DNA of 64,000 nt, from contig CM120641.1 in the NCBI GenBank assembly GCA_051362555.1, forward strand, positions 28,898,401 through 28,962,400. The letters are read 5' to 3'. Numbering within the stretch: the first letter of the stretch is position 1; every line of letters starts with the position of its first letter. Below are positions 6,919 to 22,514 of the stretch, one piece after another. Source of the stretch: Lingula anatina. Lineage: Eukaryota > Animalia > Brachiopoda. Under the pieces are notes generated by a model, which saw only the letters and a list, made by a program, of their open reading frames with translations, had not been told where the DNA came from and did not search any database. A program made the translations under genes and the position numbers.

Positions 6919-7246
6919 CAGACTTGACATTTAATGTGGAATTTTTTTCAATTGATTTTTCATCAGTTTTTTTTTTCTATTTCGCTGACTGATAAATGAA
7001 AGTAAGGATCAAAATCGTGTTTTAATAACTTGTAATAATTTCTTCGATGTCATTTTGACATTAACTGAATTCGCCAGTGAAACAAACAAAAATATATTGC
7101 CTATTTTAAGTCATACGACAACCATTAAAGGCGATATTTTGGTGCTCCATATTTTCAAATTTATCATCTGTAAGAGGGTTACACACCCCACAAACGATCC
7201 TCATGTCAGTGTCTGGTTTAACAACGGTCGTTGTTACGCCTGACCT
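6919..7246. mobile_element. Truncated one-ended copy of the Tc1 element at 12518-14179
   Basis: TA + CAGACTTGACATTTAATGTGGAAT, then ~320 bp colinear with 12518-12853 (ending ggtcgttgttacgcctgacct). Confidence 0.9.
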
Positions 7247-8409: not shown

Positions 8410-9230
8410 CGTAAGGTGTGTCGTTGGGCTGTTACAATGCTTTTTGTGATGTTAATCAGAAAATTTATATTCTATTCCTGAACACCTAATGGCAGATTTT
8501 CGTCAGAACCGTGACAATGCGTGGGAGAGATTACCTTTATGTTCGTCTTATCATATACCGAAACAGCTTTTTCAATGGTAAACAGTGAAAAAAAAATTAA
8601 TTATTTATCAGAACACCAACTGATAAAACTTTCAACAGAACCCTGATAACGTGTGGGAGAGATACAAATCAGTTTAATGCAAGGTCGAAAACTGGGAATC
8701 AGAATGTGAGAAATGACAAATAAAATATTGGAGAGACCGAAAAACAAAATGAATCTTTCAAATGGACCAATGGAATGATATGCCTAACGAATGAACAGAT
8801 ATTATTACATGGATACAGTTAAAACAGTTAAAACTTTTAACTGATTTTAACTGATACATGGATACAGGACTTTGAGAAAATATATGTAGGAAAGTGGAAG
8901 AAGATGAGAACCACGCGTGGCTTTATTGGGGTGTTGATTTAAACACCTTTTACATTATTAAACTGTCCATAAGTAAACGTGAGGTGTACCGGTGGGCTGT
9001 AACAACGTATTTTGTTATGTTAACAAAAAAAAAATAGATTATATACCTAGAAAACTAATGGCAGATTTTCGTCAGAACCGTGATAAAGTGTGGGGGAAAT
9101 TACCTTTAAATTCGCCTTCTTACGGGCATCTTTTTAAATTCTTATCAGTTAACAAATTAGTTTGCCTAACTGAACATCGAATTAACAAATTTTCAGTAGA
9201 ACCGTGATAACACGTGGGAGAGATCACCTT
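8410..9230 (+). promoter_or_regulatory. Duplicated upstream block (~8410-8665 and ~8978-9230) holding four AGAACCSTGAYAA-N-GTGGGRGARAT modules (GATA-like plus kappaB-like sites)
   Basis: Modules at 8505-8535, 8637-8665, 9074-9104 and 9198-9228, e.g. AGAACCGTGATAAAGTGTGGGGGAAATTACC. TATAAAA follows at 9309-9315. The repeated sequence is seen directly; the regulatory role is inferred. Confidence 0.6.
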
Positions 9231-9308: not shown

Positions 9309-9535
9309 TATAAAAGAAAATTGCGTCAAAGAAAAAATTTAGATGCTTAGACGTGACAAACGGTGTAAGAACAACGGATCTGGGGTAAATATACAACTTT
9401 TTTTTTTGAAAATGCGGTATTCTTGGGCAGCTTTGTCTTGATTATCTAGATAAAGTCGGTTATATGTTGTTAATGCTCTGTTTCTTTTAGTGAGATGATG
9501 ATACCCTGAATCTAGATATTTCTTTCTATATTCAG
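9309..9535 (+). promoter_or_regulatory. TATA box, probable non-coding first exon and 5'-UTR intron of the Cys-rich peptide gene
   Basis: TATAAAA at 9309-9315, candidate donor GG|GTAAAT at 9385, and acceptor tctttctatattcAG| ending at 9535, just before the ATG at 9546. Confidence 0.5.
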
Positions 9536-9545
9536 ACCAAAGACA

Positions 9546-10263
9546 ATGAAAATTGCACTGTTTGCCGTTGCTTTGTTACTGGTGGTGCATATGACGGAAG
9601 CAGTCCGTGATAAAGAAAGGAACAAAGTCCATTCGATCCAGAAACGATCTTCATACATCGAAGGTCTTGCTCGCAAAAGAGCCTGCGGTTCCACCACCTG
9701 CAAGTAAATCTGCTTTTTTTTTAGTAACTATATAGCCAATTTCGAATAAAACATTTTGATGGAAGAATATCATTTTTTTATACATGCCTAGCGATGATAA
9801 TTACCTCTTCCAGGGTTGCGTTAGTTAGATTATCATTACTGCTACAATGTTGTTAGACTTAAAGTTACTTTACTTTAAATACTTGGATACGTCAGATACT
9901 TAAAGCGATCTTCGCTTTTCACGATGCAAAACTGGTAGTTTGTGAACGCAGTTTACAAGTGGATTTTTATCTAAATTTATTTCCATAATCATGCAATACA
10001 TTAACAAAAGCAGATCTGTCCGTCGGACTACAAGACCGTATTATACTTTCAGGGTAAAGGGCTGTGAGTCTGGCGGTGGCTGGTGGTTTGTGTCGTATTC
10101 TGCGGGCTGGCACATCCGGGGCTCTGATCGAGGTTGCTGTGGCAACTACAACGGCTGCTGCAGGCATGCTTCTGCCGCGTGCTACTGGCACGACTACACA
10201 TGTCGCTGTTGTAATCCTAGTTGGTTTTGTGGACCTTCGTGCAAGAAAGCACCAGGATGCTGA
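9546..10263 (+). CDS. Secreted cysteine-rich prepro-peptide, 122 aa, two coding exons (9546-9703, 10053-10263); toxin/antimicrobial-like with a PLA2-like CxxHDxxC motif
   Basis: Exon 1 encodes MKIALFAVALLLVVHMTEA (signal), VRDKERNKVHSIQKRSSYIEGLARKR (propeptide ending in RKR) and ACGSTTC, then AA|gtaaat. The acceptor ttatactttcag|G at 10053 restores the phase (AAG) and continues VKGCESGGGWWFVSYSAGWHIRGSDRGCCGNYNGCCRHASAACYWHDYTCRCCNPSWFCGPSCKKAPGC*. Confidence 0.9.
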
Positions 10264-12517: not shown

Positions 12518-14179
12518 CAGACTTGACATTTAATATGGAATATTTTTTTCGAAATAATTTTTTATCAGTTTTTTCCTATTTTGCTGACTGATAAATGAAA
12601 GTAAGGATTAAACTCGTGTTTTAATAACTTTAAATTATCTCTTTGATGTCATTGTGACATCAGTTCATTAATGGAATTCGCCAGAGAAGCAAACAAAAAC
12701 ACATTGCCTATTCTATGTCATACGACTCCCATTAAAAGAGAGATTTTGGATCTCCATATTTTCCAAATTATCGTCTGTAAAAGGGTAATACGCTCCACAA
12801 AAGACCCTCATGTCAGTTGCTAGTCACAGTAATGGTCGTTGTTACGCCTGGCCTCTTCGTGGCTGTTGCCAGGGCTCTCAAGCGGCAAGGCATTTCTTGG
12901 GGGTAGGTTTTTAGAGTTCAATCTGGATTAGCATTCCAGGCATCGGTCTAAAATTGTCCAATCTGGTCCAGTTTTGTTGTAGGACATGTAGGCAGTTGAT
13001 TGGTGAGTAATGGTCTACCGAAATATTGTCAATGTGGTTCAAATGTGGCGATTTTGATGACCAGGGTAGCTGCTCATTCCCTTGGTTCTGTAAGTTATCT
13101 GCTATTAAAAGTGCTCTGTGTGAACCTGCAACCTCATCGTGCAACCTAGAATTGTTTCTAAGGTGCCCCCTATCAAATGATAGTCAAGTGGTTTCGAGAT
13201 AATTCCTTTATTTAATCTGGTTCAGGTTTTCGTCAATGACTACCGTTGGTGTTTTGGCACCAATATGGAATCTACTCCAAATACTGACGCTGTCAATCAC
13301 CCTTGTCACTTTAGACCCGGCATATTCTTCGTCGTAGGCCTCCTCTGGATATCTGTAAACTCTGTTTTGACTAATTGGGCGGTACAGGTGAAATCTGACC
13401 TCAATAAAGAAAGCCACGCAGTTTCAGTGTTCTACCCAGAATCGTTCATGGCCCCCAATTCATTAGAGAAACAGACGACGATGTTTTGCTGTATACAGTG
13501 GGTACCTCGGAGGTCATTTGGTGTTCTTACCTGCTAAAACCAGTTTGGTGTTCGCTAAGGACTTTGAAAAACGCATTTTAGTGGCAATTTACCCCTCGTT
13601 CTGAACGGACTAAGTGTTTTTTGTTTAGTTGCACCAGCGTATCCCGAAAGACAGTGGGTCCTGTACCCTGTAGGTAAAATTTTGATACATTGGGGGTGAC
13701 CTCTGTGTAGGTACATCAGTCTGGGCATTACTCTATAAAAGTGTGGGGACCGTTCCGTTTGGCGCTATGATCTGTCTGGTTATGTCTGTCTTTTTCGCGC
13801 CATTCTGCCTTAGATTAACAAATTTGTAATGCACTACTTGACTCATCTGACGCACTGCAAAACTGACCGCTTGCATGCAAAATTTCAAATTCTTCTATGC
13901 AGTAGTTGCCGAAATATGGATACTTTTTTGACAGAACTAAGCTTTGCCTAAGCCAAGCTTTGATCAGCCCAAAGGAACACTACCCAATTAAATCACTGCA
14001 AATTACATAATGTAGCAGCGCAACAGGCATGAAAGTCAGTTAATTGGTAGTGACACACCTGACTGCACACTTTTACATTCACAAATCTTATATGAGATCG
14101 GAGTTTTTTGAAAAAAGAACGTATTTTTATCTAGGTATACCTTCTAAACTAAAATATTCCATATTAAATGTCAAGTCTG
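12518..14179 (-). mobile_element. Full-length fossil Tc1/mariner DNA transposon (1662 bp)
   Basis: 29-bp perfect TIR CAGACTTGACATTTAATATGGAATATTTT with its reverse complement at 14151-14179. TA on both sides (12516-17, 14180-81). A decayed transposase lies inside. Confidence 0.95.
12911..13728 (-). pseudogene. Degenerate Tc1 (DD34E-type) transposase
   Basis: Fragments FFIEVRFHL..RVYR..DSVSIWSRFH..KTPTVVIDENLN (resembles FSDESRF..GSVMVWGG..RTPLVVIDGNL) and HRALLIADNLQNQGNEQLPWSSKSPHLNHIDNI (resembles WPAKSPDLNPIE). An MPRL-type start lies at 13728. Stops and frameshifts are present. Confidence 0.9.
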
Positions 14180-15775
14180 TAGATCAAACCAGATAATGAG
14201 GCTATTTTGCTACGAGGCTATTTTGATTTATTGTGTCAAAAGGTTACCACAAAATTTTGTGCTTTTGTCCTCAGTGTAACTAAGTGACTATTATTTTGCG
14301 CTAAGCCGCCTTACTTACCCGCGTACGTAATTCTCAAGCGACGGCATTATTTCGTTTAACGTAGTGAACGATTAAATAAACATGAACCAGCCTACATGAA
14401 TGTCAACTATACGAACTTTGCTTAGCATTGAATAGGATATTTTTCCTCTGTCAACTTGAAATCATACTCATTAGGCGTGCATTTGGTGGGCATTGTATGG
14501 GTTGGAATTGCACCCGTGAGGCTAGAAACGTCACAGCGTCTCAAGGAGCAAGAACATACTGGAGTGTATGTGCACGTACAGGAGATTTTATATGCAACAA
14601 TAGGATAAATACATGCACACTGTTCGTCACAACATGCTAGCTTACAGAAAACGTTTTCAATGATCACCGTTTACACTATGTGCGCTAGGAAGGATATAAT
14701 ACCGCCAAGTAGGCCCACTGCGTTGGGACAACCACAAGGGTGAGATTATCCTGGTACATACTTTTTTGTACGGGGTATGTACGTTGGCGTTACTAGAACC
14801 ATTGTAATTTCTACTGGTACATCGAAACATCGACCGCGTCGCTTTCCTGAAGTGCTACTGCTATTGATTTTCGTGTGTTCAACATGATTAAATACCGTTT
14901 GGAAAAATGACCCTGCTGTACATGAACAAAGAGACGGTAATACTTGGTACATATGTTATATACCTATACATGCACTCTGCATCTGTGCGACACATCCGCC
15001 GACGACACTGTTATTAACGCAATACGAGTACCTCTGAGAACTATAATTCGGCTTTCAGCAGTCAACCATTCATCGTATTGACCAACTACCTTTGCCTTTA
15101 GGTACATGTATCACGAGGCTTGGAATGGTCGCCATTAATTCTTCCTAGGGTACTCCTCCCTGTATCCCCGAGGGCAACATGAAAGGGGGCAGATCAGCCA
15201 AGCGCATATATCTACACGGCATGAGATTCCGGATGCACGACAGCAATACACGTATGTTGTATTAGATATTTACAATTGTGAGTGCCCGAAAGGAAAAGCA
15301 AATTTTGTTGGTCAGAGCAAAGTCGGTTGTATGCGTTGTTCTTCAGAGCGACTGTCTTTGAATGGACAATGTCATCAGAAAGACTGATAAACTAGTCCCC
15401 TTAGAAAGAAATGTGCTGATACAATTCTCTGGTGATACGTGTACTGTAGGTGGAAACTTGTGAACAAAAGGATCTACAGCAGCCGCCCATTTGTGGAAAC
15501 AAGTCACCGCTATCATATGGGAGATGGATCGGGCACTGCGAATTGTGATCTTGTTATGATTTATTTCTCATTTTCTATGGACCCTCGGAACTCCCTAAAC
15601 GACGTAATCTGGAAAAAGTGGCACAAATAAGGAACATTTCACGGCAAGATCTGCTCAGGATAACCCAAAGAAGGTGCTTTGTCGATATAAACAGATGGTC
15701 GTTTTACAGCGAAAGTAAAATCCAAGACTGGTGAATTGTCACATTACATTTACTGATATATTTTGCATTTTATGC

Positions 15776-16963
15776 ATGATGGCTAGAAGAAAAATAAGGA
15801 GTTATATTTACTTTGCTGTAAAGGCATTGGGGATTTTGATGGTATTGCGCTTAATTTCCTCGTTATTCCATGCACCATTTGCAGTGTCGAGGCAATCAGT
15901 TGCAGACGCAAAGTACCACAGCTATGCCACCGAGACAGCTGCAAAGCCGACAGGACGCCCTCACAGATTCTTATACACACCGACAGAAAAGTCTAATACT
16001 CTTGCCCCTAGTAAAGACATTTTCAGAGCAAGGACAAAGGCTCTCGGTATGTATCAAATGTCAAGTGATTTTTACGGCAAGCATTCCGTGGCTCAGCTTG
16101 TGAAAAGTCATAAGCTCGTCGAAGAAGGTGCGAATCCTCACGATTTTCGTTACATCATTCAACCAAAAGAACCCTGCAAAGATACCCAAAACATCTATAT
16201 TACTATCATAGTAAGCTCACACCCCAGTCATTCAAGTAGGAGAAATATCATTCGAAATACATGGGGCAATCCAAAAACGTTTGAATTCAAGGGGATTTTA
16301 ACACGTACCATATTTGTGATGGGACTTTCCAGGAATTCTACAACAAATTGGGCTTTGCTCGAAGAAGGTAAAAAATTTAACGATATTGTCCTTGAAGATT
16401 TTTTAACCGAATACAAGAATATGACTTATGCGCATATAGCAGGTTTTAAGTGGATTGCCACGTATTGTAACCAGTCGAAGTGGACAATTAAGACTGATGA
16501 TGATGTTTATGTTAATATCTTTCAAGCAATAAGTTTTCAAGAAAAGAACAAACTCACAGGCGATTTTATCGCTGGGGCTATCACCACGCCTGCAGTATAC
16601 AGACGCGGTGGAAAATGGCGCGTGACAAAATCTGAGTATATAGATGACCGATACCAGACGTACCCTATGGGATATGGTTATATGACTACAACAAACTTAG
16701 TGTCCAAGATGTATACTGCGTCTATTTCGACACCGTTTTACTGGATCGACGATGTTTATGTGGGGATTTTAGCCGCTAAAGTTGGTGGCGTGCGCTTCAA
16801 AAGGACACAAACTAACAATTGGCTGGGTAAAAACGTAAACATTATTGTTTTAGCAAATAATGGCGCGCTTTTCACACATTTGGAGGCCAGGCATGTCAGT
16901 AAAGCCACTGATATCTTTAAAAAACAAAATCAAACATATCATCAGGGCTTAAAAAGACGCTGA
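15776..16963 (+). CDS. Single-exon GT31-family beta-1,3-glycosyltransferase (B3GALT/B3GNT-like), type II membrane protein, ~395 aa
   Basis: Basic tail and TM segment (MMARRKIRSYIYFAVKALGILMVLRLISSLF), then RRNIIRNTWG, EGKKFNDIVLEDF, the DxD motif KTDDDVYVN, GYGY, WIDDVYVGILA and a C-terminal His. The ORF track starts at GTG 15731; the first ATG is at 15776. Confidence 0.95.
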   Translation: MMARRKIRSYIYFAVKALGILMVLRLISSLFHAPFAVSRQSVADAKYHSYATETAAKPTGRPHRFLYTPTEKSNTLAPSKDIFRARTKALGMYQMSSDFYGKHSVAQLVKSHKLVEEGANPHDFRYIIQPKEPCKDTQNIYITIIVSSHPSHSSRRNIIRNTWGNPKTFEFKGILTRTIFVMGLSRNSTTNWALLEEGKKFNDIVLEDFLTEYKNMTYAHIAGFKWIATYCNQSKWTIKTDDDVYVNIFQAISFQEKNKLTGDFIAGAITTPAVYRRGGKWRVTKSEYIDDRYQTYPMGYGYMTTTNLVSKMYTASISTPFYWIDDVYVGILAAKVGGVRFKRTQTNNWLGKNVNIIVLANNGALFTHLEARHVSKATDIFKKQNQTYHQGLKRR

Positions 16964-18107: not shown

Positions 18108-18362
18108 TCAATAACTAACCCAATAAGTCTTCTTGGCGCCGTAGTGTCTTGGGTAGTAGCCATAATCACCGAAGACGAACTTGCCACGGGAAGATAATAC
18201 AGCGGCAGTGTTGGCTGCGCCACGGGCCCGGGATGCAGGATCGAGCTGATAACCCCCTGGGTAGTATGTGAGGCGGCCATCTGGTCCTGGGTAGTAGTAT
18301 TCTCCAGGGACGGCACACGCCACGGCTAAAATAGCGACGAGACAGACAGCTTTCAACATCAT
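18108..18362 (-). CDS. Secreted Tyr/Gly-rich small protein, copy A (84 aa, intronless)
   Basis: Signal MMLKAVCLVAILAVACA. The 67-aa mature part has 12 Tyr, no Cys, and the core YQLDPASRARGAANTAAVL. TATA at 18426-18432 (minus), AATAAA at ~17606 (minus), and a conserved paralog at 22242. Confidence 0.9.
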   Translation of the reverse strand: MMLKAVCLVAILAVACAVPGEYYYPGPDGRLTYYPGGYQLDPASRARGAANTAAVLSSRGKFVFGDYGYYPRHYGAKKTYWVSY

Positions 18363-18649
18363 GGCGATTACTTGCTTGTGAGACGATCAAATATCGAAAC
18401 GCTGAGAAGACACTCAAATCGCTCTTTTTATAGTAAATTTTGTGCGTGCGACTTGCTCATTACGTGTTTCTTTTATCTTTTTTCTATTTTTTTTTTCAAT
18501 TACCGCATTTATTTTGATTTATCGTCATTATGTTGATCACGTACTTTAAATAATTGGCATGGGTAAGTGTTTTTCATACGCCCTTCATCTATTCTTATAA
18601 TTAATATTATTATTAGCTATAAAAAGTTAATATCGTCACTTACTGATAA

Positions 18650-21805: not shown

Positions 21806-22241
21806 CTATCAGTCCTTAAGTCTTTTTTTATTATTAATAAACTTATTTCTTTTGATTTATCGTCATGCGATTGACAAGGGCAAGGAAAACCATTGTTTTA
21901 CCAGTTTCATTGACTTTCTTTTTTCTTCTTTTTCTGGCGGTAATTCAATGATATTATACATTATACACGTTTAAGGCATTGCTTCTAAAACCAATTGCGT
22001 ATATTCGAATGAAACTGGTAGAAAAACTTTATCCTTTCCCACACCCAATTAAAAAAAAACGTGATCAATGTAGTGACGATAAATCAAAAATAAATGCGGT
22101 AATTGAAAAAGAGAAAATAGATTAAGTATAGATAAAACACAAAATAAGCAAGTAGCACGCACAACATTTTCTATAAAAAGAGCGGTTTGAACATCTTCTC
22201 AGCGTTTCGATATTTGATCGTCTCACAAGCAAGTAATCGCC

Positions 22242-22514
22242 ATGATGTTGAAAGCTGTCTGTCTCCTCGCTATTTTGGCCGTGGCGTGTGCCGTCCCTGG
22301 AGGATACTACTACCCCGGACCAGATGGCCGCCTCACATACTACCCCGAGGGTTATCAGCTCGATCCTGCATCCCGGGCCCGTGGCGCAGCCAACACTGCC
22401 GCTGTATTATCTTCCCGTGGCAAGTCCATCTTGGGTGACTATGGCTACTATCCAAGACGTTACAACTATTATGGTCGCTATGGCACCAAGAAGGCTTACT
22501 GGGTTAGTTATTAA
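22242..22514 (+). CDS. Secreted Tyr/Gly-rich small protein, copy B (90 aa, intronless)
   Basis: Signal MMLKAVCLLAILAVACA. The 73-aa mature part has 15 Tyr. TATAAAA at 22172-22178, gccATG context, AATAAA at 23081. In-frame 18-nt insertion relative to copy A. Confidence 0.9.
   Translation: MMLKAVCLLAILAVACAVPGGYYYPGPDGRLTYYPEGYQLDPASRARGAANTAAVLSSRGKSILGDYGYYPRRYNYYGRYGTKKAYWVSY

Follow-up and report, generated by a model that had tools for sequence, protein, structure and literature searches.

A Spliced Gene of Lingula anatina for a Small, Predicted Secreted Cys-Rich Domain with a Conserved His-Asp Pair, and Its Relatives in Bacteroidota Gene Pairs

A short open reading frame (ORF) in a 64,000-nt stretch of Lingula anatina DNA (here called the window) had been read, from its letters alone, as part of a spliced prepropeptide whose Cys-rich mature domain resembles phospholipase A2 (PLA2). 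This raises the question of whether such a gene exists, to which family its product belongs, and what that product might do. Seven RNA runs (X12, X13, X15, X16, X18, X19, and X20) were aligned to the window. The junction joining position 9703 to 10053, with GT..AG ends, is spanned by 3 reads in X19 and 12 in X20, two runs whose reads are mostly 95 to 99% identical to the window. In X18, four reads fall on the two exons and none lies within the intron. X12 and X13, from two samples within a single study, gave 60 and 57 reads over the same junction from copies less than 95% alike, while X15 and X16 gave zero reads and hence have no bearing on it. Reads of the window's own gene are few (4, 10, and 41 in X18, X19, and X20, respectively), and a few of these represent diverged copies. 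The closest protein, XP_013406099.1 (L. anatina RefSeq), has the same length of 122 aa, and is collinear with both exons, with identities of 62% and, over exon 2, 80%. The splice proposed in the sequence-only reading is thus borne out, and the window gene is real, spliced, and expressed. Its features, all on the plus strand, are as follows.

9360 to 9384 (+): probable untranslated first exon, 3' end only (from loose read ends)
9385 to 9535 (+): probable 5' UTR intron, with a GTAAAT donor and a pyrimidine-rich AG acceptor; no read joint listed
9546 (+): start codon, ATG (sequence)
9546 to 9602 (+): predicted signal peptide, residues 1 to 19, with a basic start, a hydrophobic core, and small residues at -3/-1 (judged by eye)
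9603 to 9650 (+): predicted propeptide, residues 20 to 35, ending at K34-R35, the likelier convertase site (KR is kept among copies)
9651 to 9703 (+): predicted N-terminal helix (model), with the first two Cys residues and RKR (9672 to 9680) inside; end of exon 1
9704 and 10052 (+): GT donor and end of the AG acceptor (sequence)
9704 to 10052 (+): intron, 349 nt, GT..AG, phase 2 (15 reads in X19 and X20 together)
10053 to 10263 (+): second coding exon, with 12 of the 14 Cys residues and the conserved core (reads and family alignment)
10120 to 10155 (+): G-S-D-x-G-C-C-G-N-Y-x-G loop, residues 76 to 87, a candidate metal- or head-group-binding loop
10180 to 10203 (+): C-x-x-H-D-x-x-C motif with the candidate catalytic dyad, His99 (10189 to 10191) and Asp100 (10192 to 10194)
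10263 (+): end of the stop codon (sequence)
Coding exons 1 (158 nt) and 2 (211 nt) (+): phases 2 and 1, 122 codons in all (sequence)

Loose ends of X19 and X20 reads before 9535 find their best match in the window at 9360 to 9384 (18 of 24 letters), immediately before a GT donor, and there is probably an extra untranslated exon that ends near 9384. One DNA run holds both a contig matching the window flanks and diverged exon ends, so that several diverged copies of the gene are likely in the animal. The exon-2-only gene calls P0004 and P0021 break at the codon that the intron interrupts in the window, which suggests that the intron is old and common to these genes.

Elsewhere in the window, a single long ORF at 15719 to 16960 (+) encodes a member of PF01762 (galactosyltransferase; E = 4.8e-40). 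Two short Tyr/Gly-rich ORFs that begin like signal peptides, near-copies of each other in opposite orientation, lie at 22218 to 22511 (+) and 18111 to 18386 (-); they match no Pfam family and are perhaps shell or chaeta proteins. Locally repeated stretches, noncoding or element derived, occur upstream of the gene at about 8480 to 8660 and 9050 to 9230, and further ones at 6989 to 7243 and 12647 to 12823.

The mature domain had been taken to begin after RKR, and the 77 residues that follow do contain 14 Cys, 5 Trp, and 12 Gly residues, together with the CYWHDYTC motif at 10180 to 10203. The processing site itself finds less support: RKR (residues 43 to 45) is RER in XP_013406099.1 and falls within helix 31 to 47 of the RefSeq-copy model, and it is K34-R35 that both the RefSeq copy and the consensus of loose ends from diverged copies conserve. 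Because K34-R35 is kept and RKR is predicted to be helical and not kept, a mature product of about 87 residues is likelier than one of 77; two-step trimming of the precursor is possible. An A-R-x-x-A-C-G stretch is kept in an acorn worm, a sea urchin, and one further member, and in the first two of these its middle residues do not form a basic pair. In many animal-type members, KR, RR, or RxxR occurs some 8 to 48 residues upstream of the core. Cys residues co-occur at positions 47 and 52 (12 of 13), 57 and 88 (73 of 74), and 105 and 122 (44 of 45); these three pairs, with eight near-invariant Cys residues for four more bonds, would allow up to seven disulfides. The median net charge of the domain is -2 in animal-type members and -1 in the others, and over the same span it is +4 for the window copy and -1 for the RefSeq copy. 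These family medians show a domain that is not generally cationic and argue against a conventional, defensin-like antimicrobial peptide.

A profile search of 1.84 billion representatives returned 262 sequences at E ≤ 0.001, of which the best 150 were used. The alignment of 149 rows consists of 148 of these plus window exon 2, with P0007 (without the core) and P0082 (874 aa) omitted. The profile by which members were collected itself contains the His-Asp and loop motifs, so that their conservation is partly built in and the following counts are upper bounds: His99 is present in 149 of 149 members and Asp100 in 148, and in the loop G76 is kept in 145, C81 in 149, C82 in 148, G83 in 141, N84 in 137, Y85 in 147, and G87 in 142, with a spacing from CCG to CxxH of 12 residues in 146. 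The invariant residues are of catalytic type (H, D, N, Y, G, and C). Position 95 is mostly I, A, V, or L, and the next Cys is at 103. The sole other well-kept acid after the dyad, at position 119, is D or E in 41 of 45 animal-type members and in 70 of 104 others, and is Ala in the window gene. Four members come from Branchiostoma (P0131 and P0158 to P0160); in P0131, a long amphioxus form and the one of the four known to carry this change, His-Gln replaces His-Asp and the loop is altered, and it is possibly a noncatalytic member.

No Pfam or NCBIfam family is common to more than 2 of the 149 members, in keeping with the earlier suggestion of an uncharacterized family. A fold search found no PDB match for a query model that included the signal and pro parts, a match to an unlisted family being possible. 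Among 23 members looked up, the named animal ones come from Lingula, Mizuhopecten, Mercenaria, Dreissena, Amphiura, Strongylocentrotus, Glandiceps, and Branchiostoma, that is, from brachiopods, bivalves, echinoderms, an acorn worm, and amphioxus; in all eight genera they are annotated as uncharacterized or by low-complexity likeness. Relatives in Bacteroidota, which the sequence-only reading had suggested, were indeed found, in Chitinophagaceae and Flavobacteriaceae metagenome-assembled genomes (MAGs) and in Chitinophaga skermanii; across 401 Bacteroidota genomes the core occurs in 2, one of them the seed. P0054 (112 aa) joins an RmlA-like (nucleotidyl transferase) start to a core at its end, as a fusion remnant or an assembly artifact. 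In the profile libraries and literature searched, we found no description of the family, of its partner proteins (below), or of its presence in marine invertebrates.

In secreted PLA2s (sPLA2s), a long second helix after the His-Asp dyad bears the partner Asp. For the RefSeq copy, AlphaFold2 (149 rows; mean pLDDT, 83.6) predicts helices at 2 to 23, 31 to 47, 94 to 102, and 109 to 112, with the dyad on helix 94 to 102 (local pLDDT, 92 to 95). In a model of a long bacterial protein (107 rows; pLDDT, 87.0), a strand-rich beginning and a helical middle section accompany the same small core, whose dyad is on helix 286 to 294. Only a 4-residue helix follows the dyad helix in either model, and an upstream helix could substitute for the missing long one. 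Everything that the sequence-only reading had named as counting against it thus came out the other way: junction reads exist, no characterized Pfam or NCBIfam family was found for the domain, and the His-Asp pair is conserved and predicted to be helical.

The core shares with sPLA2s (groups I to III, XI, and XII; PF00068, PF05826, and PF06951) a disulfide-rich and, by prediction, secreted nature, a CxxHD motif on a helix, and a Gly-rich Cys loop about 15 residues upstream of the dyad. This fixed GCCGNYxG loop stands at a distance similar to that of the sPLA2 Ca-binding loop, YxxYCGxxxxGC, but differs in sequence (CCGNYxG against YxxYCG). The active-site motif also differs, being CxxHDxxC here and CCxxHDxC in sPLA2s, and the core is only about 50 residues long, with no long postdyad helix in the model and no profile match. 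Without the CCxxHDxC motif and, in the models, a long helix after the dyad, membership in the sPLA2 family is unsupported. Of the idea of a mini-PLA2, the conserved and predicted helical His-Asp pair survives and the family assignment does not; the domain may be PLA2-like in its chemistry. The bacterial and fungal PLA2s of the Tox-PLA2 type (PF09056; PDB 1kp4), as described in excerpts from PMC3482391, carry a PLA2-type dyad in a C-terminal toxin on long repeat carriers and share with our family a conserved Asp a little upstream of the first Cys. Their DxC[ST] and CxxHxxxYxN signature is absent here, however, where eight Cys residues are near invariant, and the excerpted table of that paper gives no immunity family for them. 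Membership in a PF09056-like family is unsupported, as a Cys stands four residues after His in 148 of 149 members.

Most nonanimal members are about 260 to 490 aa long and consist of an N-terminal domain followed by the core, which in bacteria is mostly the C-terminal end of a lipoprotein-like protein; a crude pattern finds a lipobox-like Cys in 44 of 87 long nonanimal forms. Single cases show other carriers: P0127 has a type IX secretion tail, and at locus L019 the core ends a 1383-aa SBBP/SprB repeat protein. Polymorphic toxins likewise carry toxin tips at the ends of long carriers (PMC3482391, in part), and export signals with varied carriers would fit a bacterial toxin-immunity cassette. 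At L002 (473 to 1400), either the core gene is split or other lipoprotein-like ORFs, one with Cys, precede it, possibly as a second cassette. The long animal forms have the N-terminal domain, often a basic cleavage site, and then the core; the Lingula, bivalve, and several further members have the core without that domain, the bivalve ones with long unrelated tails. By their N-terminal parts, BLAST joined 97 of the 98 long members, among them animal ones, into one network. A profile of the bacterial N-terminal domain scored 12 to 26 bits against the named animal-type proteins and 45 and 32 bits against two further ones; the bacterial-animal link in this domain, as judged by these comparisons, is real but partly indirect.

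Fifty-four loci contain the core, 46 of them distinct and 39 of these with room downstream. A partner, defined as an ORF of 80 to 130 aa with 2 to 4 hydrophobic helices and a start within -30 to +130 nt of the core stop, follows the core in 32 of the 39, versus 2 of 93 control ORFs (further long ORFs at these loci). At L010 the partner lies about 0.35 kb downstream and at L005 directly upstream of the core; L038 and L039 look eukaryotic, and at L014, L016, and L045 no partner was found beside the core. In total, 34 of 37 bacterial-looking loci have a partner. The partners fall into BLAST groups of 18, 6, 2, and 2, plus 4 singles, unlinked by BLAST, and no Pfam family was found for the 18 tested. 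The nearest core has the same partner type in 31 of 37 cases (13.8 in shuffles), a descriptive figure, since kin share labels. The largest partner group occurs in 6 of the 401 genomes, 5 of them without the core; these coreless genes could be like orphan immunity genes or belong to an unrelated ordinary small membrane family. The genes upstream of the bacterial loci differ between loci, and no regulator or transporter genes are common to them. Near related DUF4302-type genes, L007, L059/L065, and L058 have the orders core-partner, partner-core, or partner alone (with an in-frame stop); a cassette seems to have been gained, shuffled, and lost at one site.

The pair has the anatomy of a toxin and its immunity gene, the roles that we infer for it. 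According to portions of PMC8469651, three-helix immunity proteins guard against lipid II-degrading relatives of colicin M and also against pore formers. The pairs of colicin M relatives with PmiA/BmiA resemble ours in combining a periplasm-acting, lipid-cleaving toxin with a three-helix membrane immunity protein encoded down- or upstream, but those toxins have a DxYD(x5)HR motif absent here, receptor and translocation domains, and no Cys cage. BcpT, as described in part of PMC9308784, is a Bacteroidales lipoprotein toxin with an N-terminal part, a C-terminal active part freed by proteolysis, and a small immunity gene in its operon. This likeness is one of description: BcpT has 499 aa, and its immunity protein BcpI is a lipoprotein, unlike the multihelix membrane protein here.

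We give an even chance to a scheme in which the Lingula product is a secreted, convertase-processed, disulfide-locked putative antibacterial enzyme, whose His-Asp pair would act on bacterial membrane lipid and which is homologous to the C-terminal domain of the likely Bacteroidota cassettes. The Lingula gene is transcribed and spliced, as the reads demonstrate; the signal peptide would come off after residue 19 and the propeptide after K34-R35, leaving about 87 residues. In bacteria, the domain ends an exported carrier and a membrane-protein gene adjoins it, presumably as toxin and immunity. The N-terminal domain may be a pro-domain or carrier, as proposed for BcpT (PMC9308784, in part); several long animal forms have a basic site between it and the core, and the Lingula gene has lost it. 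A disulfide-rich exported toxin with an inner-membrane guard would imply action at the membrane from outside, where His99-Asp100 and the CCGNYxG loop would hydrolyze a membrane lipid, in the sPLA2 manner or with a lipid II-like carrier as substrate. Lipid hydrolysis is suggested by the motif, its helix, and the type of partner; that the substrate is phospholipid, cut in the sPLA2 manner, we hold to be doubtful overall.

An enzyme is favored because the His-Asp pair is near invariant and the family is neutral to acidic in charge. The domain might instead be a nonenzymatic cystine-rich toxin or antimicrobial ligand, binding a membrane receptor or lipid or forming pores, with His-Asp structural or metal binding. 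Its very small size, dense disulfides, and little regular structure would suit such a role, as would the cationic window copy (+5 to +7), the fact that membrane immunity proteins also guard against pore formers (excerpts from PMC8469651), and the existence of the bacteroidetocins, Cys-containing peptide toxins of Bacteroidota (PMC11901371, in part). Yet the pair hardly varies from bacteria to animals, most of the family is neutral or acidic, and the core has no long hydrophobic stretch, and we consider this reading unlikely. Distinctly unlikely, in our judgment, is a highly reduced sPLA2 with a housekeeping role in digestion, lipid signaling, or membrane remodeling, the bacterial neighbor being a nonimmunity membrane partner. 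A helical CxxHD motif that lies 15 residues beyond the first Cys in a Gly-rich loop recalls the sPLA2 hallmarks, a YGKYCGxxxxGC loop and a DACCxxHDxC active-site motif (PMC6635587, in part), and PLA2 clusters are among the language-model look-alikes, at 0.75 to 0.77 and below the 0.9 bar, as leads only. Such a protein would not, however, be expected in a tight, partner-switching gene pair on varied carriers; the core is rare in Bacteroidota (2 of 401 genomes), and there is neither a long helix after the dyad nor a PLA2 among the Pfam families of the 149 members.

A role outside conflict can also be imagined, as an extracellular signaling or matrix protein of the animal (a hormone-like prepropeptide, or a shell or chaeta component) and, in bacteria, as a sensor lipoprotein paired with a membrane protein. 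The signal peptide, propeptide, and basic sites would suit a peptide hormone too, bivalve members have their long unrelated tails, and two Tyr-rich secreted ORFs lie near the window gene. Against it, the bacterial loci share no regulator or transporter genes and differ upstream, the partner type switches, and the animal has several diverged copies; we regard this as quite improbable.

How the putative enzyme came to be in both bacteria and animals was considered with two unrooted trees. In that of 60 long forms (10 animal type and 50 of 77 others; 286 columns), all animal-type rows fall to one side of a branch with 88% SH-aLRT support, and the two rows nearest to them are lipoprotein type with long branches. 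In that of the core (50 columns, 91 rows), 43 of 45 CxCC-type rows group weakly with one long-branched lipoprotein-type row. Transfer between bacteria and animals, which had been raised conditionally, is plausible, and a single exchange fits the trees. The trees lack a root, and Bacteroidales toxins with eukaryote-like features exist (PMC11901371); either direction may hold, with bacteria slightly favored as donors in one old transfer because of their greater diversity and complete cassette. The gene is a true animal one, with introns and expression in Lingula and annotated genes in eight animal genera. Eight animal-type members (P0022, P0086, P0104, P0088, P0126, P0132, P0137, and P0147) were called as single long ORFs, on contigs of ENA or mixed-source origin that span 30 kb to 3.4 Mb; these may be intronless animal genes or nonanimal members, a point of relevance to the direction of transfer. 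Ticks have taken over a toxin gene by horizontal transfer, dae2 (10.1101/2020.04.10.036376), and so provide a case of a bacterial antibacterial toxin gene in the service of an animal. Its product is a peptidoglycan amidase of demonstrated activity, whereas here the antibacterial role is putative. The kinds of system involved, toxin-immunity pairs and domesticated effectors such as dae2, are already known; the family itself is likely undescribed.

In its fullest form, which we put forward tentatively and think less probable than not, the proposal is of tiny disulfide-caged His-Asp enzymes, possibly of a new fold, that serve Bacteroidota as lipid-cleaving toxins with three-helix immunity proteins, were captured once by early animals, and are still secreted as convertase-activated antibacterials in brachiopods, bivalves, echinoderms, acorn worms, and amphioxus. 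Thanks to the bacterial pairs, the function can be tested directly in laboratory strains. If the proposal is true, Bacteroidota would possess an interbacterial toxin of a new class, along with the matching immunity proteins; at about 50 residues, its catalytic core would be much smaller than the secreted phospholipases now known; and proteins annotated merely as "uncharacterized" would be an old and widespread antibacterial weapon of marine invertebrates.
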